A stretch of 64,000 bases of DNA from Acidimicrobiales bacterium (GCA_050008715.1 JBEKMC010000001.1:25280-89279); one strand, 5' to 3'; counted from the first letter of the stretch, positions 6,012 through 53,500 are shown. The notes: a model not told the origin generated them from the sequence alone. Program-made: numbers and translations.

Positions 6012-6018
6012 GGCAGGC

Positions 6019-8873: not shown

Positions 8874-8919
8874 GGAACGAGTCTACGAGGCCGACCCCGC
8901 CGATCCGGAGCGGTCGGGC

Positions 8920-9294: not shown

Positions 9295-9308
9295 GGACCC
9301 AGTCCGCC

Positions 9309-35188: not shown

Positions 35189-36931
35189 ATGACCGCTCCG
35201 GATGAGGTGAGAGTCGGGACGTTGGCCGAGCTCGCCGAGCGCGGCTGCTTGACGGCCAAGCTGGGCAACCGTCCCGTCTGCGTCTTCTACGACGAGGGCG
35301 AGGTGTTCGCCGTCGAGGATCGATGCCCGCACATGGGTTTCCCGTTGCGGCGGGGGACGGTGCAAGGTGGCTTGCTGACGTGCCATTGGCATCATGCACG
35401 CTTCGACCTTGCCTCGGGCGGGACGCTCGACCCCTTTGCCGACGACGTGCCGGCGTTTCCCGTCGAGATCCGCGACGGCGACGTCATCGTGCTGGCTGCG
35501 GCCGACTCCGACCGCGTGGGCCGCCTTCTCCGGCGGCTCGAAGAGGGACTCGAGCAGGGCATCACGCTCGTCATCGCCAAGGCGGTGCTCGGCCTCCTCG
35601 AGGTGGGTGCCGGCGCAGACGAGATCGTCGAGGCCGGCGTCAGCTTCGGCACGAAGTACCGGGTGCAAGGCTGGGGGCCCGGGCTCACCGTCCTCGTCGC
35701 CATGGCGAACGTGCTCCCGGCGCTCGACCCGGCCGACCGCCCTCTTGCCCTCGTGCACGGTCTGGCCTTCCTGTCGGGCGATACCGCCGGCCGCCCGCCG
35801 CGGTTCCCCCTGGCACCCCTCGAATCGGCCGTCGCCATCTCGAGACTGACCGACTGGTACCGGCGCTTCATCGACACGCGTTCGGCCGACGCCGCAGAGC
35901 GAACCTTGGCGACGGCCATCGCCGCCGGCAACGATCCCTCCGACATCGCCTCGCTGCTCGGTGCGGCCGTCACCGATCACGTCTTCATCGACGAGGGCCA
36001 CACGATCGACTTCACGAACAAGGCCTTCGAGTGCCTCGAGCACATCGGCTGGGACCGTGCCGGCGAGGTGCTGACGACGCTCGTCGCCCAAACGGCGTCA
36101 GCTCAGCGCCACGAAGAAGAGTCAGCATGGCGACATCCCGTTGACCTGGCAGCGCTGCTGTCGGCATCGGCGAGCGAGGACGTGCTCAGCGCCAGGCTCG
36201 GTGCCGCCTCGGGACGCGAGGCGACCCCTGTGTTCGGGGACGAGGAGATCGACTCCCTCGCCTGGGTGCTGTTGTCCGACGACCCGGCCGGCATCATCGG
36301 GTGCCTCGATCGCGCCCTCGACGCCGGCGCCAGTCCAGAGCAGCTCGCCCGTGCGGTCGCCTACGCGGCTGCGCTGCGGATCGTGAGATTCCACACACAG
36401 AACGACCACGGCGACTGGAACGAGGTCCACCATGCCTTCACCGCCGCCAACGCCGTACATCAATCCATGCTCAGGGCACCTTCGGTCGAGCTCGTCCGGG
36501 GTGTGTACCAGGGGGCCATGCGGGTGTACCTCGATCGTTTCTTGAACGTGCCGGCAGCTCGCCAGCCGTCGGGCGACGAGCCCGCCGACCTGGCCCTGCT
36601 GCAGGCGTGCTGGGACTCCGAGGGTGGTGTCGACGAGGCCGGGCAGATCGCGTACCGGTTCCTCGCCGGCGGCGGCGAGCCGGCCGAGCTGATCGCCGTG
36701 CTCGGAAAGGCGCTCCTCACTGAGGATGCCCAATTCCACTGGTTCCAGATCTACGAGGCGGCAGTGCGCCAATGCGGTGCCTGGCCGCCGGGGAGCGAGC
36801 AGGGCCGGCTCATACTCGCCGGCTGCTCCCGCTTCCTCGCCGCCCACACGCCGACGCGGCGAGAGCGCTCCCAGGTCGTGCGTATCGCCACCCGCCTGCG
36901 CCGCGGCGACCCGCTCTACGAAGAGTCCTGA
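35189..36931 (+). CDS. Rieske [2Fe-2S] domain fused to about 470-aa uncharacterised helical domain
   Basis: The Rieske ligands are C46-P-H48 ...16 aa... C65-H-W-H68 (CPHMGFPL...CHWHHARF). I do not recognise the remainder. Confidence 0.7.
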   Translation: MTAPDEVRVGTLAELAERGCLTAKLGNRPVCVFYDEGEVFAVEDRCPHMGFPLRRGTVQGGLLTCHWHHARFDLASGGTLDPFADDVPAFPVEIRDGDVIVLAAADSDRVGRLLRRLEEGLEQGITLVIAKAVLGLLEVGAGADEIVEAGVSFGTKYRVQGWGPGLTVLVAMANVLPALDPADRPLALVHGLAFLSGDTAGRPPRFPLAPLESAVAISRLTDWYRRFIDTRSADAAERTLATAIAAGNDPSDIASLLGAAVTDHVFIDEGHTIDFTNKAFECLEHIGWDRAGEVLTTLVAQTASAQRHEEESAWRHPVDLAALLSASASEDVLSARLGAASGREATPVFGDEEIDSLAWVLLSDDPAGIIGCLDRALDAGASPEQLARAVAYAAALRIVRFHTQNDHGDWNEVHHAFTAANAVHQSMLRAPSVELVRGVYQGAMRVYLDRFLNVPAARQPSGDEPADLALLQACWDSEGGVDEAGQIAYRFLAGGGEPAELIAVLGKALLTEDAQFHWFQIYEAAVRQCGAWPPGSEQGRLILAGCSRFLAAHTPTRRERSQVVRIATRLRRGDPLYEES

Positions 36932-39204
36932 CTCGGGTGCGGCGCTTGCATCGCCGCGAGGAAGGCGACGGCGTCGGCACGCTCCTTCGTGCGACGCATA
37001 GGCGGGAGCGCCTTCACGAGGTAGCCCGAGTAGCTCGCCGTCGCCAGGCGAGGGTCGAGCACGGCGACGACGCCGCGGTCGGTCTCCGTCCGGATGAGGC
37101 GTCCGGCACCCTGGGCCAACAACGTCGCCGCCCGCGGAAGGTCGACCAGCCGAAAACCCATCGCGCCCGCCGCCTCCCGTCGTGCAGCCATGAGTGGCTC
37201 GTCCGGCCGAGGAAACGGAATCTTGTCGATCACGACGAGCGACAGCGTCGCACCGGGCACGTCAACCCCCTGCCAGAACCCCATCGTCGCGAACAGGCAT
37301 GCCGCCTCCTCCGAGCTGAATGCTTGCAGGAGCGCGGCCTTCGGGAGATCGCCCTGCACGTGGACCGGCCACGGGATCCTGGGACGGAGGGCGTCGGCCG
37401 CTGCCTGCATCGCCCGGTAGCTCGTGAACAGCCCGAGCGTGCGGCCGCCGGCTGCCCGGACGAGTGCTTCGAGCTCGTCGTGGAGCGCCGCCTCGGAGTT
37501 CGGCCGGCGGCGGTCGGGCAGGCGGGCGGCGCAATAGAGGAGGCCGTGGCCGGCGTAGTCGAACGGGCTGCCGACGTTGAGCTCCGTGACCGTGCCGGCG
37601 GCTGCTCCGAGGCGTTGGGCGAGGCCGGGCGGCAACGTGGCACTCGTCAGGACGACCGGGATCTCGGCGAACACCTGCTGGGCGAGAAAGCTGCTCACGT
37701 CGAGCGGGGCGGACCTCAGAGAGGGCCGGTCGCCGCCGGTGACCCACACGACCTCCTCCGCCGCCGGGCGCGGGCCGGCGGGGGCGGGCGGGGCGGCGGG
37801 GGCGGCGGCAGCGGCGGCGGGAGCGGCGGCGGGAGCGGCGGCGCCGGCGGCGGGGGCGGGGGCGGCGAGCGGGGCGGGGGCGGCGAGCAAGCACGACTCG
37901 AGCTCCTCCCGGCAACGCTCGACGGCGAGGAGCGCCCGCAGGGCTCGCTGGGCGGTGTCGCTCGTGGTGGGCTGATCGGACTGGGAGGCGCGCCGCAGCT
38001 CGCGTTCGAGCTGCACGAGCCGGGCCACAGTGAAGCTCACGGCCGGGCCGACCACGTCACCGAGACCGGGAGGCAGCCGCTGTTCGGGGACAGAGGCCAG
38101 GGCATCTTCGAAGCGACCGGCCGCCGCCAGTACTCCGTCCACGGCCTCAGTGCCGGCCCGGGCAGCCCGCCCGCCAGCCGCAACAGGACCGCCGCCGGCA
38201 TCGAGCCCGCGTCCGGCACTGTCGAGGGATGGGCGAGCGGCCACGGCGATGCCTCGCAGCCGTCCGGGGCTGACGTCGACGCCGAGACAAGCGGCGAGCA
38301 CGTCCTCCAACTCGTGCGCCTCGTCCACGACGAGCGCACCGTGTTCCGGCAACACGGCCCCTCCGCTCCGGAGGTTCGCCCCGAGGAGGTGGAGATTGAC
38401 GATGACGACGTCCGCCGCGCCCGCCAGAGCTCTGGCTCGCTCGGTGAAGCAGTCGGCACCGGACGGGCACCGATGAGCACCCGGGCACTCGTCGGCTCCG
38501 ACGCTGACCGCGGACCATGCTGTCGGGTGAGGCTCGAAGTCGAGCTCGCCGCGGTCGCCTGACACCGTCGACTCAGACCACTGCACGAGGCGCGTCACCT
38601 GCTCACCGAGTGAGCCCCGAAGGTTCGCGGTGGAGGCGCCGACTCCCTCGAGGCTGCCTTGCCGGCCCGCCTGCTCCATCTCGGCGAGCCGCTGCCGGCA
38701 GAGGTAGTTCGATCGGCCCTTCAGAACCGCCCAGCGGATCGGGCGACCGAGCTTGACGCTCTTCGCTACAAGGGGCAGATCTTTCGTCGCGAGCTGGTCC
38801 TGGAGCGCCTTCGTAGCGGTCGCCACGACCACGCACGACGACGACAGGACCGCGGGCACGAGGTAGGCGAACGACTTGCCGGTCCCGGTCCCGGCCGTGA
38901 CCGCTACGTGACGAGGCTGGTGACTGGGACCGGTGCCGTAGGCGTTGCCGTTCCCTTTGCTGTTGCCGTCGCCGCCGGCGTGGCCGACGTTGCCGTCGTT
39001 GCCGGCCCGGCCGGCGTTGCCGGCTCGGCCGACGTTGCCGTCGTTGTCGGCCCGGCCGGCGTTGCCGGCTCGGCCGGCGCCGGCGGCGCTCGCCAGGCAA
39101 GCTGCCACCGCCTCAGCCATCGCCCGCTGTCCCTCGCGAACTTCTGCCGCCGGCAGCTTGGCGACGACCCGCCCGAGCTGATCGGTAACGGTCAGCCGTG
39201 CCAC
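36916..39204 (-). CDS. dinG: DinG/Rad3-family Fe-S ATP-dependent DNA helicase
   Basis: It has Walker A (TAGTGTGKSFAYLVPA), Fe-S cysteines (SNYLCRQR...ECPGAHRCPSGADCF), a DEAH box (VVDEAHELED) and C-terminal helicase motifs (SATL..., FATMGFWQGVDVPG..., GRLIRTETDRG). The start is either GTG 39204 or ATG 39342. Third-position GC drops between the two, which favours 39204. Confidence 0.8.
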   Translation of the reverse strand: MARLTVTDQLGRVVAKLPAAEVREGQRAMAEAVAACLASAAGAGRAGNAGRADNDGNVGRAGNAGRAGNDGNVGHAGGDGNSKGNGNAYGTGPSHQPRHVAVTAGTGTGKSFAYLVPAVLSSSCVVVATATKALQDQLATKDLPLVAKSVKLGRPIRWAVLKGRSNYLCRQRLAEMEQAGRQGSLEGVGASTANLRGSLGEQVTRLVQWSESTVSGDRGELDFEPHPTAWSAVSVGADECPGAHRCPSGADCFTERARALAGAADVVIVNLHLLGANLRSGGAVLPEHGALVVDEAHELEDVLAACLGVDVSPGRLRGIAVAARPSLDSAGRGLDAGGGPVAAGGRAARAGTEAVDGVLAAAGRFEDALASVPEQRLPPGLGDVVGPAVSFTVARLVQLERELRRASQSDQPTTSDTAQRALRALLAVERCREELESCLLAAPAPLAAPAPAAGAAAPAAAPAAAAAAPAAPPAPAGPRPAAEEVVWVTGGDRPSLRSAPLDVSSFLAQQVFAEIPVVLTSATLPPGLAQRLGAAAGTVTELNVGSPFDYAGHGLLYCAARLPDRRRPNSEAALHDELEALVRAAGGRTLGLFTSYRAMQAAADALRPRIPWPVHVQGDLPKAALLQAFSSEEAACLFATMGFWQGVDVPGATLSLVVIDKIPFPRPDEPLMAARREAAGAMGFRLVDLPRAATLLAQGAGRLIRTETDRGVVAVLDPRLATASYSGYLVKALPPMRRTKERADAVAFLAAMQAPHPSQDSS
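37810..37888. repeat. GC-rich in-frame tandem repeats (3 x 12 nt then 2 x 18 nt) inside dinG
   Basis: The 12-nt unit agcggcggcggg occurs three times, the third variant. The 18-nt unit ggggcgggggcggcgagc occurs twice, perfectly. Together they encode an Ala/Pro tract (AAPAPLAAPAPAAGAAAPAAAPAAAAAAPAAPPAPAGP). Confidence 0.9.
38983..39072. repeat. 2 x 45-nt tandem duplication inside dinG (1 mismatch)
   Basis: The unit gccgacgttgccgtcgttgccggcccggccggcgttgccggctcg occurs twice. It encodes AGRAGNAGRA(D/G)NDGNVG repeats immediately N-terminal to the Walker A motif. Confidence 0.95.
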
Positions 39205-39357: not shown

Positions 39358-41109
39358 GTGCAGCTGCGCCGCGTCGGAATCGTCGTCGCCGCCGGCGCCG
39401 GATATCTCGCCGTCTCGGTGGTCCTGTGGTGGCACCTGTGGGCTGTCGGGCTCGGTCACGGCATCGTGGCGGGCGGCTACGGCGATCCCGACCAGGACGT
39501 CTGGTTCCTCGCCTGGGTACCGCACGCTCTGTCGCATGGGCTCAATCCCTTCTTCAGCAGGGCGATGTTCGCCCCGAAGGGGATCAACCTCACCGTCAAC
39601 ACGAGCATCCTCCTGCCCTCCCTCGTCATGACGCCGGTCACCGAGCTGTTCGGCCCGCTCGTGTCGTTCAACGTCGCCGTTGTCCTCGCACCGGCGTTGA
39701 GCTCGTTGACCGCTTTCGCGGCATTCCGGCGGTGGGCACCATGGGCGCCCGGACGCTGGCTGGCATGCCTGTTGTACGGTTTCTCGCCGTTCGTGCTCAA
39801 CGACCTCCTGTCGGGTCACCTGCACCTGACGATCCTCGTGTTCCCACCGCTGGCGCTCGTGCTCTTCGACGATCTCCTGGTACGCCGGCAAGGAAACGCC
39901 GTCACCAAAGGAGTCCTGCTCGGCCTCGTCTTTGCCGCTCAGTTCCTCACCGGCCAGGAGCTCATGGCGATGATGGCGATGGTTGCCCTTTGTGGGGTCG
40001 CCATCTTGGCGTTGCGTCACCCGGGCGAGGCCAAGCGGCACTGGCGGCGGGTGGCGACCGGCCTCGCCAGCGGTGTCATCGTCGCCGGCGTGCTGCTGGC
40101 CGTTCCCGTCTACGAGCTGCTGGCCGGGCCTCGCCGCTTCGGCGGCACCGTCTTCCCGGTGCCGTATGCGTTCTGCATGGTGTTGCGCACGTGGCTGTGG
40201 CCGCTCGGCGGTTGGCCTCAAGCCAGAGCGGCGTCCTATGTCGGGCTTCCGATCCTTCTCGTCGTCGCCGTCGCCTGCTGGCGGATCCGCGACGGCACGC
40301 TGCGCTTCGCGGCCGCAATGGCGGGGGTGGCGTTGATGTTCGGTCTCGGTGACAGCATCCATTGGAGTGCGACCCTGAACACGCACATCCCGCTCCCCGA
40401 CACGATCTTCAGTCATTGGCCGTTGTTGAAGAACCTGTTGCCGGTGCGCTTCGCCCTCATGATCAACCTGTTCCTGGCGCTCGCGCTCGCCATCACCTTC
40501 GAGCACGTGCGGGCGTGGTGGGCGGCTCGTCAGATGTCCACGTCACCGGGGGCCAGTCGCCGCCTCGTCGCCGGTCTCGTCAGCCTCGGGCTCGGTGTCG
40601 TGACGTTGGCGTCGCCGGCACTGGGCTCCCCCATCCCTTACAGCATCCGGCGGATCGCCGTGCCGGCGGTCTACCAGTCACCCGTCCTCCGCGATCTGCC
40701 CGCCGGGACGGTGTTGCTCGGGTTCCCGTTGCCGAACGGGTTCTTCGCCGACCCGCTCGTGTGGCAGGCAGAGGAGTCGATGCCGTACGACCTCGTGGCC
40801 GGGTACGGCTTCATCCCGAGCCCGACGGGCACGCAGCCGACGGGACAGATGTGGCCGAGCATCGCGTATCAGCTCTTCCAGGAGGCGCAGCTCGGACTGT
40901 TGCCTCGGCGTCCGGACCCGACAGACGTCACAGAGCTGCGGGCGGACCTGTCGGCCTGGCACGTGTCGGTCGTCGTCGAGTACGTGGGCTACATCTCCGT
41001 GGTGCAGCCGGGCGAGCTGGCCGCCGTCGTCGACGCGGCAACGGGCGTCGCTCCGCTTCGAGTCGACGGCGCCTGGGTGTGGCGGCTGCGGCTTCCGGCA
41101 CCGACGTAA
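39358..41109 (+). CDS. polytopic membrane protein, GT-C-like glycosyltransferase candidate
   Basis: The 583-aa product has at least 10 hydrophobic helices and an acidic motif in the first loop (GDPDQDVWFLAW). It has a soluble C-terminal domain of about 150 aa. I recognise no specific family. Confidence 0.55.
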   Translation: MQLRRVGIVVAAGAGYLAVSVVLWWHLWAVGLGHGIVAGGYGDPDQDVWFLAWVPHALSHGLNPFFSRAMFAPKGINLTVNTSILLPSLVMTPVTELFGPLVSFNVAVVLAPALSSLTAFAAFRRWAPWAPGRWLACLLYGFSPFVLNDLLSGHLHLTILVFPPLALVLFDDLLVRRQGNAVTKGVLLGLVFAAQFLTGQELMAMMAMVALCGVAILALRHPGEAKRHWRRVATGLASGVIVAGVLLAVPVYELLAGPRRFGGTVFPVPYAFCMVLRTWLWPLGGWPQARAASYVGLPILLVVAVACWRIRDGTLRFAAAMAGVALMFGLGDSIHWSATLNTHIPLPDTIFSHWPLLKNLLPVRFALMINLFLALALAITFEHVRAWWAARQMSTSPGASRRLVAGLVSLGLGVVTLASPALGSPIPYSIRRIAVPAVYQSPVLRDLPAGTVLLGFPLPNGFFADPLVWQAEESMPYDLVAGYGFIPSPTGTQPTGQMWPSIAYQLFQEAQLGLLPRRPDPTDVTELRADLSAWHVSVVVEYVGYISVVQPGELAAVVDAATGVAPLRVDGAWVWRLRLPAPT

Positions 41110-41146: not shown

Positions 41147-41192
41147 TTCTGGAGTGAGAAAGCGACCGCTACGGTGGTTTTCTCACTCCAGA
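41147..41192. terminator. perfect 15-bp stem / 16-nt loop hairpin between convergent genes
   Basis: The arms are ttctggagtgagaaa (41147-41161) and tttctcactccagaa (41178-41192). The right arm contains the methyltransferase stop codon. Confidence 0.6.
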
Positions 41193-42277
41193 ACTTCGGC
41201 CGGCGTTAGCCGGCCACGGCCCGGATTCGGGCCAGTGGCGGCGGCGGCCATGGCTGCGCACACAACGTCCCGAGCGCCCGAGAGAACGATCAGCTCGGTG
41301 TTCCTCAGATGGGACACCTCGCCGACCTTGACTCCCCCTGGGTTGTGGATGCCGATCTGGGCACCTACGTACCGCTTTGAGTCAAAGCTGAGGACCTCGA
41401 CATGTCCTCTCGAGCCGCACATGGCGGTGAGGTCGTCAAGCGTCAGCCAGGCCTCGTCGTTGTAGGACACGGCGAGGAGGCGGCTCCGGGCCGCCTCGAT
41501 GACGCTCGCCAGCGCCGTCGCCATCGAGCGGCGGCCGTTGAAGGGGCTGTGGGACGCCGGTTCCCGGCAATCGACGCGCTTGCAGGCGGTGCCGTAGTGC
41601 TGCGGGGCGTCCCACCGCACGAGCGTCTCCCAGACGTGATAATTCGAGAAGTACCGGTGCTGGTTGTAGGGCGGGTCGAGGTACGCGAAGTCGAATTCGC
41701 CGGTCAGCGACCTGGCCGTGTCGAGGGCGTCGCCCAGCAGCGCCGTGCCGTCGCCCTCGATGAGGTTCGGGACGCGTAATTCGAGCGGCTTCAGGGCGCG
41801 GGGCGCCCACTGCTTCAGGTAGGCCATCTGCAGCCCGGTGGTGGAGTCGACTCGATCCGCCGCCTCGAGCAGGCTCGACAGGAGCAGGGGATACAGCGGC
41901 GTTCCGGCGAAATCCTCGATGGCGTCCCGGATGGCGTCGATACGAGCCCCGTTGTCCGGGTGGAAGTAACGCGCCGTCTCGCAGAAGACCGCCGTGACAT
42001 AGCCCCGCACGGGCGGGCGGGCCGCCAAATAGCCCAGTACTTCGGTGAGCTCCCGGACATCGATGTTGCGGGCGTTCGTGGCGACGTACGCCTGCGCGAG
42101 GACGTGGGCGTAGGTGGCCGAGTCGACGGCGGTCACGTGGGCGCCGCTCTTCTTGAGGGCTTGGGCGACGCGGGTCGTCCCGGTGAAGAGGTCGAGCGCC
42201 CGTGTCGTCCCGACGGACTGGGCGAGGAGGGTGATGGCTGGGACGAGGCGGCGTTTTGACCCGAGATACTTGATCAC
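41183..42277 (-). CDS. Dam-type (D12 class, alpha-group) N6-adenine DNA methyltransferase
   Basis: Three motifs are present: motif X VIKYLGSKRRL, motif I ALDLFTGTTRV and motif IV AYLDPPYNQ. The GTG start overlaps the adnB stop (GTGA). Confidence 0.8.
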   Translation of the reverse strand: MIKYLGSKRRLVPAITLLAQSVGTTRALDLFTGTTRVAQALKKSGAHVTAVDSATYAHVLAQAYVATNARNIDVRELTEVLGYLAARPPVRGYVTAVFCETARYFHPDNGARIDAIRDAIEDFAGTPLYPLLLSSLLEAADRVDSTTGLQMAYLKQWAPRALKPLELRVPNLIEGDGTALLGDALDTARSLTGEFDFAYLDPPYNQHRYFSNYHVWETLVRWDAPQHYGTACKRVDCREPASHSPFNGRRSMATALASVIEAARSRLLAVSYNDEAWLTLDDLTAMCGSRGHVEVLSFDSKRYVGAQIGIHNPGGVKVGEVSHLRNTELIVLSGARDVVCAAMAAAATGPNPGRGRLTPAEVLE

Positions 42278-45200
42278 GCCGCTGCGACCGCCGCCCGGAC
42301 ACGGGCGACGGCCGCCGGGAGATCTGGCACGTCGAACTCGATCGGGCGACCCGGCGGCGCCAGGAAGACGAGCACGCACCGTCGTACGGGCATCCCCGTC
42401 GCGTCCGCCAGCGCCAGTGCGTAGGCGGCGGCCTGCAGGGAATAGCGCTCAGCGGATGCGAGCACGTCCGCCTGATCCCGTACCGAGTCGGTCTTGTAGT
42501 CGATGACGACGAGTCCACCGTCGTCTTCGAAGCAGATGTCAACGTAGCCGTCGAGCACGACCCCGCCGACCATCGTGGCGACATAGACCTCACGCCGAGG
42601 GCTGCCCGAATCGAAGGCGGCTTTCACCGTCGGGCTGGACAAGGCCGAGGCCACGAGGTCTTCCACTTCGCCCGCCCGGGCGCCGATGCCCTCCGACCCC
42701 GCCTGGGCAGCCGCAAGCTCGCGAAGCTCGGAAAGATCCGCGCCATGGGGTGTGCCGTCGGCGATCCGGCGGGCCACGTCCTGGCCGACGGACTGCAGCA
42801 CGGCGTGGACGGCCCGGCCGAGCTGCGTGCCGCCGCGCCCTCGACGGCGCCCTGCGCCACCGGCGTCGGCGCCGGGCGCCTCTTCGTCGATGGGCGCCTC
42901 CGCTCGCGTGCCGGCCTCGGCGCCCTCCCAGCCCAGCCCCGCCAGGGCCGCCACCTCGGTCGCCCGAACGCTCCTGCGCCGCCGGACCCGCTCCAGCAAC
43001 TCGATGCGCTCGCCCTGCCAGGCGTGCCAGTCCGCCGGCGACCTGGCCGTCCGCCTGGCCGTACGTCGGGCGACGACGGGGACGCTCATGGCGGTGACGT
43101 CGAACAGGGAGACCTGCGTCCCCGGGCCGAACGTCGCGCCGGCCTGGTCTGGCCGCTCCCCCGCGTCCGACACGTGGACGTCGTCGGCGGCGATCGGCTC
43201 CCACAACCCTGGGACACGCTCGAGCGCTTCAGTTGCGGCCTCGTAGAGCCGCTGGCCAAGGGTGCCGTCGCCGGCCGTCGCTGCGTGGTGGGCACAGACG
43301 ACGAGATGGTCCTGGGCGCGAGTGGCCGCCACGTAGAGCACCCTGACGGCCTCCGCCCTCTCGAGCGCCTGCTCGGCGGTTCTGAGCACGTCCACTCCGG
43401 CGGTCCGCAGATCTGCCCGCAGGTGCACCTCGGGTCGCCCGCCGGCGCCACGTAGGACCTTGCGGCCGACGCCGCGGGGGACGTCGTCACTGGTCCCGAA
43501 TCCCGCCAGCACGGCGATGGGGAACTCGAGGCCCTTCGCCGCATGGACGGTCAGGATGTGAACGACCTCTTCGTCGGGCTCCGGCAGGATCGACTCCACC
43601 GAACGAAGACCTTCGGAGAGCTGCTCCTCGACCCAGTCGGCGAACGCCCGCAGCCCTCCGCCACCCGCCTCGACGAACGCCCGCGCCCGCTCGATCAAGA
43701 AACGCACCCGCCTCCATGACTCCCGCTCCCGCGGCGAGCCGACTGACAGCTGTAAGAGCCGCCGATCACGGACGGCCGCTTCGAGGACACCCACCGGGCC
43801 GAGCTCGAAGCGCCTGGCTCGGTAGCCCCGCAGTGCCGACAACGCGCCGGCGACGACCTCGGCACCGGCGACATGGGCTTCGCCACCCTCGCCGGCCTGC
43901 AGGCGCTCCTCGACCGACCACACTCCGCCGTCACGCCGGTACCCATAGAGCTCGTCGTCCCGGCAGGCAAAGGCCGGCGAGCGCAGCGCCGCCAACAGCG
44001 CCACCCGGTCAGCCGGGTCGTCGATCGCCCGGCACAGGGCGAGGAGGTCGCGCACCTCCTGGCTCCGGTAGATGAGCGACGCGCTCTCGACCCTGTAGCC
44101 GATCCCGTGGGCGTCGAGCGCCGCCTCGAGCTCGGCAAGGCCTGTCCTGCGGGGCACCAGAATGGCGACGTCGCTCAGCCGGGCCGGCCGGCGGGCGTCA
44201 TCGTCGCCGACGAGCCAGCCCTCGGTGTTCACGGCCCGGTCGATGGCCATGGCGCAGGCCTCAGACTCGACGACGCGCTGGTCGTGCCGCTTGAGAGAGC
44301 CGTCCAGCTCCCCCCCGGCGATCCGGACCGGCACCCGGTGCCCCGTAGACGGCCGCACCGGCTCGAGTCGCGAGTAGCTGTCTCCCATGAGCGACGTGAA
44401 GCACTCGTTGGCAAACTCGAGGATGCCGGGCACGGATCGGAAATTCGACGTCAACGCGACAGGACCTCCTTCGGCGAGACGTGCCCGGGCGACTTCGTAG
44501 GCAGCCAGGTCGGCTCCGCGGAAGCGGTAGATCGACTGCTTCGGGTCGCCGACGAAGAACAACCGGCCAGCGTCCTTGCCACCGATGAGCTCGGCGATCT
44601 CGAGCTGCAGCGGGTCGGTGTCCTGGAACTCGTCGATCAGCAGGTATCTGAGCTTGCCCCGCACCCGCGCGAGCACACCCGGGTTCTCGGCCAGCAGATC
44701 GCGGGCAAGCACGAGCAGATCGTGGAACACAAGCGTTCCCGCGGCACGACGAGCGGCCGCCGCCTCAAGGGCCACGACGTCGAACGTGGCTACGAGCGCC
44801 GGCAGCACGGCGTCGGCAACCTCCGCGACGGCCCTCGACCGGGCCTCCCGGGCATCGCTGAGATGGCCGCGCACTTCGTCGACGTCACATGCCCAAGCGC
44901 CCTTCTGGCCGGCGTTCCCGATCCGCAGCGACGGCTGTTGTGCCGCCAGCACGGCAAGGCGCGGATCACCAGCCACTCCGCCGCCGGCGGCGCGACCGCC
45001 CGCCGCGAAGTCCTCGTCCTCGTCCTCGCCCTCGTCCGAGCCGGACAAAAGAACCTGGAGATCCCTCGCCTCGCGCAGCCGCAGCAAGAGGACGTCGCCG
45101 GGATCGGTGCAGTGCGGTTCGAGGGCGAGAGCCCCCTCGAGGCTGGCGAGGACGTCGGCCGTGCCCCGATCGACGGCGGCCGCCACGATCGCCAAGACGG

Positions 45201-45795
45201 CGGGCACATCGGGACCGGCGGTTGCGCACCGGTCCCACTCCTCACTCACCTCTTTAGCCAGGTCTTGCAAGTGGGCCGGCGTGACCCCCACCACGGAAGC
45301 AACCCCGAAGAGCTGGCGCATACGCTCGTCCTCGCCGAGACGATCGAGCACGGCAGACCAGTGCTCACGCCAGGCGAGGCTCTGGCGCACCTCGTCGAGA
45401 ATCTCGATCCGTGGCGGCAGGCCTGCCTCGATGGGATGCTCGGCGAGCAGCCGCTGGCAGAAGCCGTGGATCGTCGAGATCGCCGCCTCGTCCAGATGAT
45501 CGAGCGCGTCCTGTACCCGGCGTCGCTCCGCTCCGTCCCGGCCCCGGTTGGCGAGACTCGTCAGCTCCGACCGCACCCGCACTTTGAGCTCCAGCGCCGC
45601 TGCCTCGGTGAAGGTGATGGCGGCGAGGTCCTCGAGCCCACACGCGCCCGACCTCAACAGCTGCACGATCCGCGACACGAGCGCGGTCGTCTTGCCCGAA
45701 CCCGCTCCCGCTTCCACGAACAGCGTCGAGTCCAGGCGGTACTCGATCGTGTGCCTCGCGGCAGAATCGGCCAGGCGCCGCGCCGAGACGCTCAT
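42274..45795 (-). CDS. adnB: UvrD-type helicase / RecB-type nuclease subunit (AdnB/AddA-like)
   Basis: The 1173-aa product has Walker A (EAGAGSGKTTALVSRIV), motif II (YLLIDEFQDTDPLQ) and a C-terminal PD-(D/E)XK nuclease (GYVDICFEDDGGLVVIDYKTD). Confidence 0.85.
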   Translation of the reverse strand: MSVSARRLADSAARHTIEYRLDSTLFVEAGAGSGKTTALVSRIVQLLRSGACGLEDLAAITFTEAAALELKVRVRSELTSLANRGRDGAERRRVQDALDHLDEAAISTIHGFCQRLLAEHPIEAGLPPRIEILDEVRQSLAWREHWSAVLDRLGEDERMRQLFGVASVVGVTPAHLQDLAKEVSEEWDRCATAGPDVPAVLAIVAAAVDRGTADVLASLEGALALEPHCTDPGDVLLLRLREARDLQVLLSGSDEGEDEDEDFAAGGRAAGGGVAGDPRLAVLAAQQPSLRIGNAGQKGAWACDVDEVRGHLSDAREARSRAVAEVADAVLPALVATFDVVALEAAAARRAAGTLVFHDLLVLARDLLAENPGVLARVRGKLRYLLIDEFQDTDPLQLEIAELIGGKDAGRLFFVGDPKQSIYRFRGADLAAYEVARARLAEGGPVALTSNFRSVPGILEFANECFTSLMGDSYSRLEPVRPSTGHRVPVRIAGGELDGSLKRHDQRVVESEACAMAIDRAVNTEGWLVGDDDARRPARLSDVAILVPRRTGLAELEAALDAHGIGYRVESASLIYRSQEVRDLLALCRAIDDPADRVALLAALRSPAFACRDDELYGYRRDGGVWSVEERLQAGEGGEAHVAGAEVVAGALSALRGYRARRFELGPVGVLEAAVRDRRLLQLSVGSPRERESWRRVRFLIERARAFVEAGGGGLRAFADWVEEQLSEGLRSVESILPEPDEEVVHILTVHAAKGLEFPIAVLAGFGTSDDVPRGVGRKVLRGAGGRPEVHLRADLRTAGVDVLRTAEQALERAEAVRVLYVAATRAQDHLVVCAHHAATAGDGTLGQRLYEAATEALERVPGLWEPIAADDVHVSDAGERPDQAGATFGPGTQVSLFDVTAMSVPVVARRTARRTARSPADWHAWQGERIELLERVRRRRSVRATEVAALAGLGWEGAEAGTRAEAPIDEEAPGADAGGAGRRRGRGGTQLGRAVHAVLQSVGQDVARRIADGTPHGADLSELRELAAAQAGSEGIGARAGEVEDLVASALSSPTVKAAFDSGSPRREVYVATMVGGVVLDGYVDICFEDDGGLVVIDYKTDSVRDQADVLASAERYSLQAAAYALALADATGMPVRRCVLVFLAPPGRPIEFDVPDLPAAVARVRAAVAAA

Positions 45796-48700
45796 ATCGG
45801 TCCCACGAGCTCGGTGAACGCCTTCATCTCGTGATCATTGCTCGCACGTTCCCAGAGCTCGGCCCGATCCGTCGTGCACAACGCGTCGAAGTCGCAGTAC
45901 TGGCAGTTGTCGTACTGCGACTGGAGCAGGCGCCCCGGGTGCGGAGGGAAGCAACCGGCGTCGATGGTCGACACGAGCGTCTCGAGCACATCGTGGAGGG
46001 CCGCAGCCACTTCTTCGTTCAACTCCACAGGGATCACGGCGTAGCCGGCCACCGCCTGCACGAAGCGATATTCGGCACGAGCTGGCTGGCGGAGGGTGAG
46101 CTCCCGACCGAGGACCTCGACGGCGGCTTTCGCGTAGATCGGGAGCTGAAGGTGACGACCACGCCCGAGCGGATCCGTGAGAATGTCCTGGAAGTTGCCG
46201 GACCTCCCGCTCTTGTAGTCCACGACCACGAGGCGGCCGTCGGCGGTGACGTCGACACGATCGATGCGGCCGCGGAACAGGACGTCGCGCCCGGCGGCGT
46301 GGGCCACGACTGGCCGTCCCTCCCCACCGAAGTCGAGCTCGACCGACATCGGAACCCGGCCCGCAGCGACGGAGTCCGCCACGTCCCGAGCGACGTACCG
46401 CTCGAGATCCCGCAGGATGCGCGCCCGTTCGGTGTCCCAGAAGATCGCCTTGCCAGTCTTGCCCGATCGCTCGAGCTCCTCGAAGGCGGTGTTCGCGAGG
46501 TCACGCAGCCGGGCACGGGAACGCTCGTCGATGACCGTGACCGGCACGACGGTGCCGTTCTCCTCGAAGAAACCCTCCAACACCGCGTGCATCAGCGTCC
46601 CCCGCTCACGCGCATCGATCACCACGAGGCGCTCCGGCTGCTCGAGCTTGCTGACACCGAGCTTGCGGTCGACGAAGAAACGGAACGGGCACGCCGCGAA
46701 AGTCTCCAACCCTGTGGCCGACAGCGGGTGGACCCAGGCATCCTCAGCCAGGCCGGCGGCGGGTACGTACCCGGCATAGGGGTTGAGGCCGCCGGCACGG
46801 CGATCGAGGGCAGCTTGTCGCCGTCGCCGGTAGTCACCGTCCAACAGCTCCAGGAAGGAGGGCGCCTCGCTGCTGGAAATGGCCAGGAGGGAGGCCAGCT
46901 CGAAGTCGGCGGCGTCCGATGCGGCCATGCCGTCGACGACCTGGCGGATCGAGCCGGCAAACGACGGAACGTCGGTGAGGCGGCCGTCGAACAGCTCGGC
47001 CGCCCACCGGGACGGGTAGGCCGCCCGACCGACGCGCACGTCGATGCGGGCAAAGGAGGCAGATGACCTTGCGGAGGCCGACAACGCCCAGAGGAGATGA
47101 CGGCGGCCTGCTTCGTCCGCCTGCTCCCGCTCCGCCAGCGAGGCCACCTGGTCGCGCTCGGATCTCGGCAGCAGGGGATCGTCACGCCGGGGGGCCGGCA
47201 GATCGCCCTCGCGGCACCCGAGGACGATCAGCAGATCCGAGCTCGTGCCCGCGACGGCGCGGAGCGACCCCACTGCCGGCCCGGCGCCGAAGCGGCCGCG
47301 GTCACCAGCTGGGCGGTCAAGGGCAACGTCGAGGGCGACGGCAAGACGCCGTAGCCGCTCCGAAGCCGAGAAACGGCCAAGCGGCTCGAGAGCGTCGAGG
47401 GCGTCGAGATCGCTCACGGCGTCGGCGATCGTGGTCCGTTGCTCACCTGGCTCGAGCAGTTCCTCCAGCGCGTCGTCGGTCCATCTTCGAAGCGCAGCCC
47501 AGCTGTCGGCCCGCGCGGCCGCCGAAACGAGAGCATGCAGCCGTTCGACGAACTCGAGCAGGTCGGCTGCGACCTGGGCCGCCGGCGTGGGCTCGGCCGC
47601 CGGGTCTCGCTGAAGACGGGCGATGTGGGTCCGAAGACGGTCGCGCCACTGGGAGATCCCGCTCAAGACGCCGGCAGCTCGTGAGCAGCGGTCCCAGGCG
47701 CCGACGGGGACGGCACCCTCTGCGGTGACACTCGCCAAGTGGCGAGCCAGGCCCTTGTCCGAGCGGATCGGTCCGCTCGACAGCCAGTCGATGACGTGGC
47801 CGCGATCGAGCTCCTGCCCCGGCAGCGCCGGCATCGCCAGCGCTACGAGACCGATCAGCAGCCGCGCATGCGGCGTGTCTCGGAGGAGCTGACGGTCGCC
47901 GCCGCTGTGCGGGACGCCGGCGACAGCCAGCTGTTCGGCGATTCGCCGGTGCAGCTCGGGCGCCCGTGCGCCATCGGGAAATGTCACCACGCACCGCCCG
48001 AGATCCCCGCCGTCCTCGGCATGAGCGATGAGGCGGCGCACCGCTTCGCGCACCTCGACGTCGTCATCTGGAGACGAGGAGAACTCAGTGAATCGGACGG
48101 CGTCGGCGCCGGAGCCGACCGTGGGTGCCCCCAGACCAGTCGCCCCGGCGCCGGCGGCCGCCGCGGCAGTGCCGACCACCTCAATCTCACCGCGTGACAC
48201 ACCGCCGAAACCGTCGGCCAGCGCCGCCAGGAACCTGTGGATCGCCCTGTCGGCCAGTTCGTCGCCGGTCACGCCGGCGAGCACGAGCAGCTCGAGGCGT
48301 CGTGCCAGCGACACGAGCAGCCCGGCCTCCGCCGGCCCGAGCGGATCAGGCAGGTAGAGCACGACGTTGCCCAGCTCGGAGACGTCAGCACCGCCACCGG
48401 CAGCCAGCTGGTCCATGGCGGCCCGGAGAAGGTCGTCGCTGTCGTGATAACCGGCCTCGAGGAGCTGCCGCATCGCCCGCACGAGGGCGACGACGTCGCC
48501 GGCCCGGGCGCTCGTCGAGGCGAGGCGGTCCAGTTCGACCGCCGATGCCCGGCGAAGGTCTCGGTACGTCGTGGCGAGGCTCTCCTCCGTCGCCTCGTGC
48601 CCGGCGACGGGGGCGAGAACACCCGGCACCACGCCGAGGGCGACGCGGGCGGCGGTGCGGACTGCGACCGGCGTCAGCGGCCGGCGCCCACCACGGGCGG

Positions 48701-48959
48701 CGCCGGCGGCGCCGAGCTGCTGGACCAGTGCAGCGAGCGGGGCGAAGCGAACGGCGGCGAATGCCCCGCGTTCGACGAGGCGCCGCCGCAGTGACAATCC
48801 GACGATCGGGCTGCGAACGACAACCCAGACCGGGGCCAGGCGGTCGGCGACATGCACCCGTTGCAGCTCGTCCACGAGCGCCGCCTCCGCCGCCACGCCT
48901 GGGATGACCCGCTCGATCCGACCTGCCATTGGGACGATGGTACGAGAGGGGTGTGTCAA
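45792..48959 (-). CDS. adnA: helicase-nuclease partner subunit (AdnA/AddB-like) with Fe-S cysteine cluster
   Basis: The 1055-aa product has a nuclease motif (GRIDRVDVTADGRLVVVDYKSGR) and cysteines at FAACPFRFF and CQYCDFDALC. Its stop overlaps the adnB start. The start is TTG 48959 or ATG 48929. Confidence 0.75.
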   Translation of the reverse strand: MTHPSRTIVPMAGRIERVIPGVAAEAALVDELQRVHVADRLAPVWVVVRSPIVGLSLRRRLVERGAFAAVRFAPLAALVQQLGAAGAARGGRRPLTPVAVRTAARVALGVVPGVLAPVAGHEATEESLATTYRDLRRASAVELDRLASTSARAGDVVALVRAMRQLLEAGYHDSDDLLRAAMDQLAAGGGADVSELGNVVLYLPDPLGPAEAGLLVSLARRLELLVLAGVTGDELADRAIHRFLAALADGFGGVSRGEIEVVGTAAAAAGAGATGLGAPTVGSGADAVRFTEFSSSPDDDVEVREAVRRLIAHAEDGGDLGRCVVTFPDGARAPELHRRIAEQLAVAGVPHSGGDRQLLRDTPHARLLIGLVALAMPALPGQELDRGHVIDWLSSGPIRSDKGLARHLASVTAEGAVPVGAWDRCSRAAGVLSGISQWRDRLRTHIARLQRDPAAEPTPAAQVAADLLEFVERLHALVSAAARADSWAALRRWTDDALEELLEPGEQRTTIADAVSDLDALDALEPLGRFSASERLRRLAVALDVALDRPAGDRGRFGAGPAVGSLRAVAGTSSDLLIVLGCREGDLPAPRRDDPLLPRSERDQVASLAEREQADEAGRRHLLWALSASARSSASFARIDVRVGRAAYPSRWAAELFDGRLTDVPSFAGSIRQVVDGMAASDAADFELASLLAISSSEAPSFLELLDGDYRRRRQAALDRRAGGLNPYAGYVPAAGLAEDAWVHPLSATGLETFAACPFRFFVDRKLGVSKLEQPERLVVIDARERGTLMHAVLEGFFEENGTVVPVTVIDERSRARLRDLANTAFEELERSGKTGKAIFWDTERARILRDLERYVARDVADSVAAGRVPMSVELDFGGEGRPVVAHAAGRDVLFRGRIDRVDVTADGRLVVVDYKSGRSGNFQDILTDPLGRGRHLQLPIYAKAAVEVLGRELTLRQPARAEYRFVQAVAGYAVIPVELNEEVAAALHDVLETLVSTIDAGCFPPHPGRLLQSQYDNCQYCDFDALCTTDRAELWERASNDHEMKAFTELVGPI

Positions 48960-48995: not shown

Positions 48996-49634
48996 TCAGC
49001 TCGGCAGCGGTACCTCCTCGAGCCGGCCGTCCGACAATTCCCACCAGTCGTCACAGCAGTCCGCCACCTCGGGGTCGTGCGTGGCGATGACGACGAGCCT
49101 GCCCCGACCGGCCACGTCCAGCAGCAGCCGCAGCACACGTTCTCGGCTGTCGGCATCGAGCTCTGCGGTCGGCTCGTCGGCGATGATCACGTCGTGCTCG
49201 CCCGCCAGCACTCGTGCCACCGCCACGCGTTGCCGTTGACCTCCGGACAGCTCGGTGACGAGCCGGTCCTCCGTGCCCGCGAGCCCGACGGCGGCGAGCG
49301 CACGAGTCGAGCGGCTCTCGATCTCGTCACGAGGCGGGACCAGGGCGGCCGCCTGCATCGGTAGCGAGACGTTCTCGACCGCCGTGAGGCTGGGCGCCAG
49401 CCCGAAGGTCTGCGGAACGAAACCCACCCGCCGCGTCGACCCGGACAGCTCCACCCGCCCCTCGTCCGGCTGGAGCAGGCCGGCGAGCACCAGCATCAAC
49501 GTCGTCTTCCCGGAGCCGGAGTGCCCACTGATCGCCACCGCTCGCCCGGCGTGCGCTGACAAGTCGAGGCCGTCGAGCACCTGGCGGCCGCCGAGCCGGA
49601 CCGAGAGCCTGCGCGCTTCGATTGCCGCCGCCAT
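48996..49634 (-). CDS. ABC transporter ATP-binding protein (212 aa)
   Basis: Walker A (GHSGSGKTT), signature (LSGGQRQR) and Walker B (IIADEPT) are present. Confidence 0.85.
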   Translation of the reverse strand: MAAAIEARRLSVRLGGRQVLDGLDLSAHAGRAVAISGHSGSGKTTLMLVLAGLLQPDEGRVELSGSTRRVGFVPQTFGLAPSLTAVENVSLPMQAAALVPPRDEIESRSTRALAAVGLAGTEDRLVTELSGGQRQRVAVARVLAGEHDVIIADEPTAELDADSRERVLRLLLDVAGRGRLVVIATHDPEVADCCDDWWELSDGRLEEVPLPS

Positions 49635-50515
49635 CAGGCGTCCTCCGGATCGGCGCGAGTGAGCTGGATGCCGTCGGCCCGCTCCGACAGGCGGAAGAGG
49701 GTTTGCGGCGGGAAGCGTGTGAGCACGTCCGGCGGGAGCTGCAACGTGCCGTCGCGCCCGACGACGGCGTACTGGCCGCCCTTGCGGCCTTCGGCTCCGA
49801 CGCGACCGTCGCGGATCGTGACCGTGCGGGGGACCGATGCGGCAACCGCAGGGTCGTGCGTCACCATGACCATCGTCGCACCGACGCCGTCGTGGAGCTC
49901 GTGAAGGGCCTCGATGACCTCACTGCGTTGTGCGTGATCGAGCTGGCTCGTCGGTTCGTCGACGAGAAGCAGGTTGCCGCCGCCGGCGGCGCCGACGGCG
50001 AGGGCGACGCGCTGCAGCTCGCCGCCGGAGAGGCTGCCGATCTGCCGCTGGGCGAGGGCATGGATTCGGAGCAGCGACAGCAGCTCGTCAGGCGCCGGCG
50101 GCGGGGGCACGTCATGCCGGCCACTGGAACGGGCGCCACGACCGGCGAACACGACGTTCTGTCGGACGCTGGCGTACGGCAGCAGGTTGGCGAGCGGGTC
50201 CTGCAGGACGATGCCGACATCGGTGGCGCGGTACCGCCGCAGCTCTGCCGGCGTCATCCGGGTGACGTCGCGGTTGCCGACGAGGACCTGGCCGGCAGAT
50301 GGGCGCAGCAGTCCGCCCAGCATTCGCAGCAGGGTGGACTTGCCAGCACCGGACGGCCCGAGCAGGGCCACCATCTCGCCGGCGTCGATGGTGAGATCGA
50401 CGCCCCGCAGCGCGATGACCTCGGCGCCGTCAAGGTGGTAGAGGTGAACGACGTTCGAGCAGTCGATGGCGAGGCCTGCAAGGCGCTCGGCTCCGCCGAC
50501 GATGGTGGACGTCAT
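49634..50515 (-). CDS. ABC transporter ATP-binding protein (293 aa, C-terminal extension)
   Basis: Walker A (GPSGAGKST), signature (LSGGELQR) and Walker B (LLVDEPT) are present. Its start overlaps the permease stop (ATGA). Confidence 0.85.
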   Translation of the reverse strand: MTSTIVGGAERLAGLAIDCSNVVHLYHLDGAEVIALRGVDLTIDAGEMVALLGPSGAGKSTLLRMLGGLLRPSAGQVLVGNRDVTRMTPAELRRYRATDVGIVLQDPLANLLPYASVRQNVVFAGRGARSSGRHDVPPPPAPDELLSLLRIHALAQRQIGSLSGGELQRVALAVGAAGGGNLLLVDEPTSQLDHAQRSEVIEALHELHDGVGATMVMVTHDPAVAASVPRTVTIRDGRVGAEGRKGGQYAVVGRDGTLQLPPDVLTRFPPQTLFRLSERADGIQLTRADPEDA

Positions 50516-53500
50516 GTGCTCGACCTGACGTCTTCGGGTCGGACGCGCCGCATCGTGAGCAGGCTGGCGAGCATCCCTCCGACAAGCAGCACGATGAGCA
50601 CCGCGGCGGCGGCGACGACTGCGGCGGTCACTCCGGTGCCGACCGAGGTGGGCAGCACCGGGCCCTGGCGACCCGGCGGGAATTCCGGCAGCAGGCTCAA
50701 GCTGAGCTGGCCCGCCACGATGCCGGCCACGACTCCGAGGAGGACGCCGACGACCACGACGACCGCCTGCTCGATGAGGAGGGAACGACGAAGCGGCTGC
50801 AACGGGACACCGACCGCCGCCAGTGCGGCGAATTCGAGGGAGCGCCGGCGAGCGTCGGAGGCCACCGAGAACAAGACGGCCCCGAGGGCGAGCAGCGTTG
50901 CCCCGAGGGCTGCCAGCACGAACATGTCGAAGGCGAGCGACGGAGCGGTGTGCCCGAGCGACTCGGCCGCCTCGCCGGCCGTCGACGTGGCGAGGACCGT
51001 GACGCCGTTGTCCGAAAGGCGATGCAGGAGGGCAGCACTCGGCCGGTCGTGGCACCAGACCTCGTAGGTGACGCTCCCGATCGGGCCTTCGTACTTCGCC
51101 TCGGCAAAGGCCAAGTCGATCAAGGTGGCGTTGTCGCCGATACCGGGCAGTGCGAGGGCCTCAGTCCGCGCAACCGTGGTGATGGCCGACCCGTCGAGAC
51201 CGGTGGCTGGGAACTGGCCCGGATCGGCCGGGTTGGCGTTGAGCGCCGCCAGCGTCGTCGTGACGACGGACGGGACAACGCTCGGTGCGTCGTCGGGGCC
51301 GATCGCCGGCATCGGCGTGGAGGCGACCGCATTGAACGTCACCGAGACCTGTGAGCCGGTCGCCGAGAGGGAGACCGAGCTCGACTGGTCCGAGGAGCTC
51401 GTCGGGGTCGCCGACGTCCAGTCCCCCGGGTTCGTGAGGCCGATGTCGGCCGGGACCCACCGGCCGCTGCGATCGGCCTCGACGCCGGACAGCTCGATGG
51501 GGACCGTCACCGCGTCGACGTTGCTGTTCTGCGAGGGGTTCCACTGCAGATAGATCGAGTCGATGCGGCACACGAGCGTGCAGGCATAGTCGAGGGACGT
51601 GCTCTCTTCTGCCGTGCCCTCGTGCAACGGAGCGCCGAGGACGAGCGAGGCGCTCGTGTCGTTCTGCTCGTCGAACAGATTGAGGACGAGCTCGGGTGCG
51701 GGTTTGACGGCCGTGTTCAGCCGCACCCTCATGCGGATTGCCGAGGCGTTGGCGAGCGTGGCCTCGGGCGCGGAGGGCGGATGCAGGTCGGCCGCGACGG
51801 CGGATGCGGAGGAGGGTCCAGTCGTCGTACCTGACGGCCAGCTGGCGATTGCGGCAAAACGAGTGGCGTCCACGGCGAGCGTCGGGCTGCTGGCGGAGAT
51901 CTTCGCGACGGCCATGGCCTCGCGTCCGGATGGATCGGCGTTGTCGACGGCTTGCAGGAAGTCCACGCCGGACGCGAGCCGCACCGTCAATACGTCCGGA
52001 GCGCCCACCTGGAACGCCGCCTGGGTGGCACGGTTCCTGTCCGCAACTTCGTAACCGGCTACGGAGAACACGAGCACACCTACAGCGATCACGAGCACGA
52101 CGACGCGGCGGGCAACACCCGCCCGCCGCATGATGCTGCGGCTCGCGAGGCCGAGCGCGACACGCGGCGACCAACGCGTGGCTCGGACCACGGCACGGGA
52201 CGCCAGCGGCAGCAGGCGAGCGCCGAGGATGCCGGCGACGAGCGCGAGCGCCCCGGGCGTGAGCGACGCCAGCGGATCGAGCGGGGCACCACCGGACGTC
52301 GATGAGTGGGTGCTCACGAGCTCGACGACGGCCGCAGCCGCGAGGACGACGACGAGGAGGTCGACGATCGAGGCGTTGCGGCGACTGCGGCGCTCTGAGG
52401 CGGAACGACCTTCACGAGCGAGCGAAGGTCGAACGAGGGCTCGAGAACCGATCGCAGCCGCCCCGAAGCCCGCCACGAACGTGCCGATCGCCACCACCAC
52501 TGCCAGCCCGTCCACCGACGTGCCAGTGCCCGCCTCGAACACGTGAGGGGCCAGCATGGCGACGAGCAGCCAGCCGAGCTCGAGGCCGACCGGAGTGGCG
52601 ACCGCCAGCAAGATCGCCGGCTCCCGCAAGGCCACAATGGCGATGGACCGGCGGCTCAGTCCCCGCAGCTCGGCGATCTCGAGGTCGCCGCTGCGCTGGG
52701 TCGCGTTGCTGGCGGCGACCTGGTAGAGCACGAGGAGCCCGAGCAGAACGAGCTCGAGGGCGGCGGCGGCAACGATCGTCCGCATCTGGCTCTCCTGGTT
52801 GACGACGCCCTCTAACACGCCGGGAAGCCCAGAGGTTGCCAGCAATTGGAGGGACGGCAAGGAGATCTCGAAGGACGACAACTGGCTGAGGATGTGGGGG
52901 ATCTGTGTCGCCTCGATGACGGACGGGCGCAGTGGGACCTGCCCGAACGCGGCCGTCGGGAAGAGCAAGGCTTGCCGAGCCGCCCCACCGCTCGAGACGA
53001 AGGCGTCGTCGATGTATTCGACGCTGCCCTCGGACGGGCTCGAGGTCTTGATCGTGCCGTACAGGAAGGGGTTCTCACCCCACCAGTAGGGGGCATCCGG
53101 ATTCCCCGTCTCATAGAGGCCGGAGACGACGAGCGGCTCGTTGCGGCGGCCGATCACGTTGCCGACGTGGGTGCTCAGCAGCGCGGCCGAACGAGTGCTG
53201 AGGAGAACCTCGTCGCTCCCGCTCGGGCAGTGGCCTGCCACGATGTCGAGCTGCGCGCAGACCCCCGTGCGGGACTCGATCTCGACGGCGACCATCTGCT
53301 TGCTCGTCGGATCGAGCAGCTCGGCCGACACGTCCACGGTGACGATCGGCGGCCCGTAGCGGTCCGTCGGCGCAGTCCCCGAACCTCCTGGGAGCTTGCC
53401 GAGGGCGCGCTCCAGATCCACGGTCGAACCGCCGGTGACGCCCTGCACAGGCTGGATGAGGATGCCGTCGGCGCTCGGCACGACGGTCGAGAGGGTTGCG

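Follow-up and report, generated by a model that had tools for sequence, protein, structure and literature searches.

Among the described systems closest to the locus analysed here, mycobacterial AdnAB (PDB 6PPJ, 6PPR, 6PPU) is an actinobacterial two-subunit helicase-nuclease of end resection in which each subunit combines a UvrD-like motor domain with a RecB-like nuclease, and the E. coli dam gene encodes a solitary methylase within the aroK-aroB-damX-dam-rpe-gph-trpS operon. In AddAB of Bacillus subtilis (PDB 3U44, 4CEH), whose genes stand in the order addB-addA, AddA joins a UvrD-like motor to a RecB nuclease, and AddB has a RecB-type nuclease with cysteines in the arrangement C...CxxCx5C. 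Marine metaepigenomics has in addition found N6-methyladenine (m6A) at BAAAA in all the Acidimicrobiia metagenome-assembled genomes (MAGs) examined, written by orphan methylases that have only ~25% identity to known enzymes (PMC8919816). The locus in question lies at positions 41147-48959 of a 64,000-nucleotide stretch of DNA from an Acidimicrobiales bacterium (JBEKMC010000001.1:25280-89279; this whole stretch is referred to below as the window) and contains, in order, genes for an AddB-like subunit, an AddA-like subunit and a D12-class N6-adenine DNA methyltransferase (hereafter methylase). Our analysis suggests that this is probably an AddAB operon with a housekeeping role, onto which an orphan methylase has hitch-hiked and been passed on by vertical descent. 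The pairing would then be a gene-order habit of one lineage that brings together two well-known kinds of gene, rather than a new restriction-like system. A literature search found no paper describing an addAB-methylase operon.

The three genes are open reading frames (ORFs) on the minus strand, placed head to tail at 45792-48959, 42274-45795 and 41183-42277, and their coding frames are clear in a plot of the window by frame-specific G+C content at third codon positions (GC3). The longest ORF of addB begins at TTG 48959; ATG 48929, which fits the starts of homologues (alignment with the metagenome locus L006), is probably the true start, and the gene is accordingly given here as 45792-48929. 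The addB stop codon overlaps the start codon of addA (42274-45795) in the tetranucleotide ATGA at 45792-45795, and the addA stop codon overlaps the GTG start of the methylase gene (41183-42277, 364 amino acids) in GTGA at 42274-42277; this chaining of the three genes, including the GTG that overlaps the TGA of the second gene, was noticed in an original prediction made from the DNA of the window and is confirmed here. All 19 of the methylase homologues with an intact amino terminus (n = 20 in total) begin (M/V)IKYLGSKRRL, in agreement with the GTG start. The four-base addB/addA overlap is the same in every related locus examined. The addA/methylase overlap recurs in L004, L006, L008, L090 and L095, and a spacer takes its place in L005/L007 (354 bp) and in L091 (157 bp). 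The tight overlap had seemed the best clue to a functional link, but overlapping stop and start codons are ordinary gene packing in these high-GC genomes; the methylase gene overlaps unrelated genes elsewhere and addA, too, overlaps an unrelated gene.

The first protein, AddB, matches a single Pfam domain, PDDEXK_1, at its carboxy terminus (E = 1.8e-39). It has the nuclease motif VVDYKS and a set of cysteines (C757 ... C1019-x2-C1022-x5-C1028) that is typical of the AddB iron-sulfur staple and is predicted to bind metal. The second protein, AddA, is a superfamily 1 UvrD-type helicase with a carboxy-terminal RecB-family nuclease: it matches the Pfam families UvrD-helicase (2e-50), UvrD_C and PDDEXK_1, and contains a Walker A motif (AGAGSGKT) at residue 29 and the nuclease motif VIDYKT. 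The RecB nuclease and Fe-S-type cysteines of the first subunit and the UvrD helicase-nuclease nature of the second had both been anticipated; the AdnA-AdnB label attached to them is not sustained. The 1055-residue AddB contains no Walker A motif ([AG]xxxxGK[ST]) and no helicase match in Pfam, and consists, as far as domains go, of the nuclease alone, whereas AdnA has a UvrD-like motor. Its sole sequence match to a solved structure is B. subtilis AddB (1.3e-3), with no match to AdnA in the PDB at E <= 0.01. AddA is related to mycobacterial AdnB at 2.5e-21, a poorer match than B. subtilis AddA (2.2e-46, the best) or RecB (~1e-35). Since the first subunit lacks a helicase domain and a Walker A motif and matches AddB only, the pair is of the AddAB type and not AdnAB.

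Neither protein comes near its NCBIfam equivalog cut-offs, the scores in bits being 36 versus 904 for addB_Gpos, 46 versus 487 for addB_alphas, 270 versus 708 for addA_Gpos and 213 versus 861 for addA_alphas; TIGR03623 and the recB model are also matched under their cut-offs, by AddB and AddA, respectively. The pair is therefore a divergent AddAB branch, and it is classed as AddAB-type by its architecture, not as an equivalog. The amino-terminal helicase-like domain with a Walker A motif of the B. subtilis AddB is not universal within the AddB family, so its absence argues only against the Gram-positive subtype. Thus, the end-resection enzyme of this lineage would be AddAB-type with an AddB that lacks Walker A, and it differs from its B. 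subtilis counterpart also in the methylase that forms a third cistron.

The methylase matches the D12 family (PF02086) with an E value of 1.8e-32 and 113.5 bits (gathering cut-off 22) and, over its full length, the PADLOC model MTase_II (PDLC03298; 9.2e-138), which is a REBASE-derived Type II methylase model. It is, as proposed, a complete alpha-group enzyme: IKYLGSK (residues 2-8, within IKYLGSKRRL), DLFTGTT (29-35, within DLFTGTTRV) and DPPY (201-204) are all present in the alpha-group order, and the third Gly of the FxGxG-like S-adenosylmethionine (SAM) motif is replaced by Thr in DLFTGTT. The description 'Dam-type' holds as a label for the Pfam family to which the predicted protein belongs, but not as a statement of closer kinship: the nearest annotated relatives, from plasmids and phages, are methylases of the FokI, LlaI and HpyI types together with 'Dam family' entries, none of them more than 33% identical, and GATC specificity is therefore not implied. 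GATC occurs in the window at 0.98 of expectation (observed/expected, O/E), and oligonucleotide bias in the window gave no informative signal for candidate methylase motifs (GATC, CATG, GGATG and others). No relative in the PDB, Dam structures included, was detectable by single-sequence or profile search. A Foldseek search of the PDB with the AlphaFold model of the methylase (predicted local distance difference test, pLDDT, 78.9; predicted template modelling score, pTM, 0.82) returned generic class I SAM methyltransferases only, at a template modelling (TM) score of ~0.3.

The methylase belongs to a large and unusually conserved family, with at least 8000 cluster representatives (counted at E <= 1e-10) and members in more than 600 species genomes. 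Identity to the window methylase is 54-79% across the 80 best genome loci (GTDB). An alignment of the family (A1) has a mean column identity of 67%, and invariant residues occur throughout the central region from the SAM motif to DPPY. In alpha-group methylases, the target-recognition domain lies between these two motifs. The methylase also diverges far more slowly than AddA, retaining at least 54% identity where AddA drops to 40%. No restriction enzyme adjoins the methylase gene, whose neighbours are addA and a gene for a polytopic membrane protein, and on this ground we regard it as an orphan; its DNA-modifying activity and its motif are predictions from sequence. Like E. coli Dam, it would be a nuclease-less m6A methylase of the D12 class, conserved in a large clade and encoded in an operon with unrelated or loosely related genes. 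It differs from Dam in belonging to another subfamily, with FokI-, LlaI- and HpyI-type enzymes nearest, and in having no solved structure detectable by sequence. The marine BAAAA methylases, which can be likened to it by description only, are also orphan m6A enzymes of the class Acidimicrobiia without a restriction partner; two of them, M.AspCt9H300mP26I and M.AspCt9H90mP5I, are 32% identical to each other (PMC8919816), versus at least 54% within the window methylase family. Acidimicrobiia and some other Actinomycetota thus have in common a chromosomal orphan adenine methylase of unusual conservation, which is a candidate for a Dam/CcrM-like housekeeping methylase in a little-studied class.

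Methylases ~57-63% identical to that of the window are also found in other actinobacteria, namely L035 (a Solirubrobacteraceae MAG), L082 (the isolate genome of Citricoccus alkalitolerans), L085 (a Propionibacteriaceae MAG) and L074 (a Mycobacteriales MAG). Identity across actinobacterial classes is as high as inside Acidimicrobiia, which implies either extreme constraint or horizontal transfer. Among the relatives found in searches of plasmids and phages, identity never exceeded 45%, the value reached by a protein of the Thermus jumbo phage phiLo (MH673673.1 169759-170763) that is annotated as hypothetical.

The contexts in which the two partners occur, together and apart, are best accounted for by the hitch-hiking of an orphan methylase, which the original prediction had listed among its three readings: the methylase family is found in unrelated contexts, and addAB is also found without the methylase. 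Among the 80 methylase loci, 65 could be judged for context (upstream DNA of at least 3.6 kb), and addBA lies upstream of the methylase in two of them (L007 and L008). In other genomes the methylase gene stands behind trpA (with a four-base overlap in L001 and a 7-bp gap in L027), behind genes for an S4-domain protein or a Zn peptidase (a four-base overlap in both), behind genes for a BBE-type oxidase, a Ser/Thr kinase or a GNAT acetyltransferase, or alone. Seen from the side of addA, the methylase follows with the four-base overlap in the window (AddA identity 100%), L004 (69%), L006 (64%), L095 (50%), L008 (47%) and L090 (47%), and follows after the 354-bp and 157-bp spacers in L005/L007 (61%) and L091 (46%). 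In L089 (50%), dinG stands ~175 bp after addA (L089 6001-11802); the methylase and the membrane-protein gene are both missing, and neither has left a detectable remnant. In the more distant loci, addA is followed by an unrelated enolase-family gene with a four-base overlap (L094, 43%), by an EamA transporter (L092, 42%) or by a glyoxalase (L093, 40%). The methylase is thus found behind addA in eight of the nine loci at AddA identities of 46% or more and in none of the three at 43% or less. Close relatives keep the adjacency, whose absence from them was to have told against a link, while the wider methylase family is mostly without it.

When the methylases were arranged by neighbour joining, those that adjoin addA all fell inside one clade. 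The same clade holds a subgroup (L016, L018, L023, L029 and L032) that has lost addBA but in which OFeT and dinG still lie downstream. Identity to the window falls in parallel for the methylase and AddA (80/69, 73/64, 79/61, 65/47, 66/47 and 62/46, respectively). The simplest history suggested by these sequences is that the methylase was joined to the end of addBA a single time, in an ancestor of the clade, and was then passed on vertically, being lost or relocated now and then. A scan of metagenomes with back-translated AddA patterns, which were over-specific, returned two distant loci, one of which is a recCBD locus. In L023, a recC-recB-recD operon (1185-9912, minus strand) lies divergently just upstream of a block of methylase (10001-11083), OFeT and dinG genes, in the position that addB-addA occupies in sister genomes; one end-resection enzyme may have replaced the other in situ here. 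A general link of the methylase with any end-resection enzyme, which the recCBD genes of L023 had brought to mind, was rejected because the arrangement occurs in one of 80 loci.

Taken together, these data suggest the following picture. The addB-addA genes would be the housekeeping operon for double-strand-break end resection in an uncultured peat Acidimicrobiales-like actinobacterium, with AddA as a UvrD-type motor plus RecB-type nuclease and AddB as a second nuclease subunit, which carries Fe-S-type cysteines but lacks ATPase motifs. The methylase, a putative orphan m6A enzyme of the D12 class from a conserved chromosomal actinobacterial family, would be the last cistron in this lineage. It is most likely transcribed with addBA, because there is no promoter-sized gap before it and its start lies inside the addA stop codon (GTGA), and it is most likely translated by re-initiating ribosomes, such translational coupling being suggested by the overlap. 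The transcript probably ends at a strong hairpin over the methylase stop codon (see below). By analogy with other solitary methylases, the enzyme most likely methylates one short, fixed motif throughout the genome and thereby serves housekeeping or regulation. No mechanistic tie between methylase and AddAB is needed, and functional interplay between them is presumably absent; the linkage would have a single origin, in the forebear of one clade, and would since have been inherited vertically.

Several observations weigh against this picture. The trio outlasts change in both flanks, the upstream one being an ABC transporter, a histidine ammonia-lyase or a peptidase and the downstream one a membrane protein, guanylate cyclases or OFeT, and it may persist because co-expression is selected for. 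DNA-repair genes (addBA and dinG/yoaA) are enriched in the wider block, recCBD lies beside the methylase in one relative (L023), and the addA-side contexts are a small sample (n = 12 loci). One alternative is a functional coupling in DNA repair, in which the methylase is co-expressed with AddAB near DinG/YoaA and methylation state is coordinated with break processing, for instance by re-methylating repaired tracts, by providing a signal of strand or DNA age, or by modulating the recognition of Chi-like sites. The trio is indeed kept in eight of nine loci at the higher AddA identities despite reshuffled flanks, usually with the four-base addA/methylase overlap; dinG stays nearby across the clade, even in members without addAB; and the recCBD neighbour of L023 points the same way. 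We nevertheless consider this coupling unlikely, since ~97% of the sampled members of the methylase family are not beside addAB, L089 and each of the three remoter loci have addAB with no methylase behind it, and the recCBD case is a single one among 80. A promoterless last cistron is, moreover, hard to relocate, and the persistence of the trio is explained by this without selection. A methylation-directed control of recombination, which the original prediction had also raised, may or may not apply here: the persistence of the trio across a clade with reshuffled flanks fits weak selection, but it fits a trapped promoterless last cistron as well.

A stronger form of the coupling, in which the orphan m6A methylase of this clade is integrated with end resection, so that its mark informs AddAB (and perhaps DinG/YoaA) or tunes Chi-like recognition, is in our judgement quite improbable. 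If it were true, the mark would distinguish DNA that is self, old or a template from DNA that is new or foreign, providing a methylation-based discrimination for a phylum from which, to our knowledge, MutS and MutL are missing, and the operon fusion would be the genomic trace of a link between methylase and resection.

The hitch-hiking of an orphan methylase on a housekeeping operon is in keeping with the surroundings of the three genes. The window from 30.9 to 53.7 kb is collinear with L006, the shared order being HIT, phoH, ybeY, CNNM, era, Rieske, dinG, membrane protein, methylase, addA, addB, ABC, ABC and FtsX, with only the membrane-protein gene inverted. G+C content is 68-72% across the whole window, and addB, addA and the methylase have the G+C content and GC3 of the adjoining genes. 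The nearest relatives of the window proteins are in uncultured Acidimicrobiales and Acidimicrobiia genomes, and matches to the window DNA are nearly confined to peat and soil metagenomes. The locus is thus a housekeeping chromosomal block and not an island. When addB, addA, the methylase gene and dinG were scanned with PADLOC, no defence partner emerged and no signature partners of the BREX, DISARM or MADS type. The matches were MTase_II, a generic UvrD-helicase (GajB model), DinG, a weak mad2 hit (7.9e-7) and a borderline Cas4 match (E = 6.7e-4) on the AddB nuclease domain.

These features bear on a restriction-like or anti-phage function, which had been raised for the locus and in which the methylase would mark self DNA and AddAB would destroy unmethylated foreign DNA. 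AddAB and RecBCD do degrade linear foreign DNA, as is generally known, and the one feature of the locus that favours such a function is the adjacency of methylase and addAB itself. There is, however, no endonuclease to make the ends and no other defence gene nearby, the flanks being transporters and a membrane protein, and no meaningful PADLOC match beyond MTase_II. The block is syntenic, housekeeping and of host composition; the methylase and addAB are separate in most genomes. In addition, the methylase is strongly conserved across classes, its target-recognition region included, unlike defence methylases, and it shows no patchy or mobile distribution, being absent from plasmids and nearly so from phages at high identity. 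A defence function is thus highly improbable, and the claim is not upheld.

The three-gene unit ends in a perfect hairpin with a 15-bp stem, as the original prediction had stated. Its two arms (TTCTGGAGTGAGAAA; 41147-41161 and 41179-41193) pair without a mismatch over 15 bp, and a few more pairs extend the stem; the inverted repeat (41147-41193) folds at -42.7 kcal/mol in an 81-nucleotide context (z = -5.65), and none of 200 shuffled sequences was as stable. The hairpin, which is without a U tract, spans the stop codon of the methylase gene and is placed in the 73-bp gap that separates this gene from a convergent one on the plus strand, the end of which is at 41109. It is probably a transcription stop or an RNA-stabilising element. 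A scan of 38.5-50.5 kb for consensus promoters and terminators called nothing, the hairpin included, and no further copy of the arm was found in the window.

Low-depth contigs from a permafrost metatranscriptome, derived from a ~93%-identical strain, map to portions of all three operon genes, and one contig of 243 nucleotides crosses the addA/methylase junction (42248-42490). All of these contigs come from a variant that differs by ~7%, and the evidence of expression therefore concerns a sister strain and not this genome. At the junction, this evidence amounts to a single, low-depth, unstranded contig that may stem from contaminating DNA, which counts against the picture given above; the contig is compatible with the presumed co-transcription of addBA and the methylase, to which it gives weak support. 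The metatranscriptome contigs leave gaps in the operon at 42900-43400 and 45055-45331 (run X21).

On the addB side, genes for an FtsX-type permease (50512-53667, minus strand) and two ABC ATPases (~49643-50506 and 48996-49634, minus strand), identified by Pfam matches and by synteny with L006, precede the operon. This flank (48996-53667) is on the operon strand and ends 37-67 bp before addB, and the two could be on a shared transcript.

On the methylase side, the convergent gene at 39358-41109 (plus strand, from the GC3 frame plot) encodes a polytopic membrane protein of 583 amino acids with at least eight hydrophobic segments, which belongs to no recognised family, having no match in Pfam or NCBIfam. 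A methylase gene that is convergent with a family-less gene is a common layout of restriction-modification (R-M) systems, and this gene accompanies the methylase in several loci, so that it might be taken for the endonuclease of a remnant or split Type II R-M system. The polytopic nature of its product, its absence from most methylase loci and its flipped orientation in L006 speak against this, and we find such a system barely credible; the gene was rejected as a hidden restriction enzyme because it encodes a polytopic membrane protein. A membrane protein of ~580-680 amino acids adjoins the methylase, usually convergently, in L004 (4650-6560), L006 (11174-12985), L090 (10588-12321), L095 (10634-12493) and L081 (4124-6157). 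That of L006 is encoded on the methylase strand and is 38% identical to the window protein, versus 57-88% for the flanking genes, which indicates that the gene is inverted there and diverging fast. In L081 the membrane-protein gene is upstream of the methylase, and the 4.1 kb of contig upstream contain no addAB match.

The next gene encodes a DinG/YoaA-like DNA repair helicase (36916-39204, minus strand), recognised by the Pfam domain Helicase_C_2, by synteny and by the NCBIfam YoaA model (2.1e-138, below cut-off). It contains an in-frame tandem repeat of 45 bp at 38974-39076 (2.3 copies, 94% matches), which encodes a Gly/Asn/Ala-rich insert near the amino terminus of the protein. In the window as a whole, CTAG is strongly depleted (7 observed versus 44 expected under a maximal-order Markov model), CATG and GGATG are near expectation, and CGCG has an O/E of 0.61; CGCG methylation has been reported in marine Acidimicrobiia (PMC8919816).

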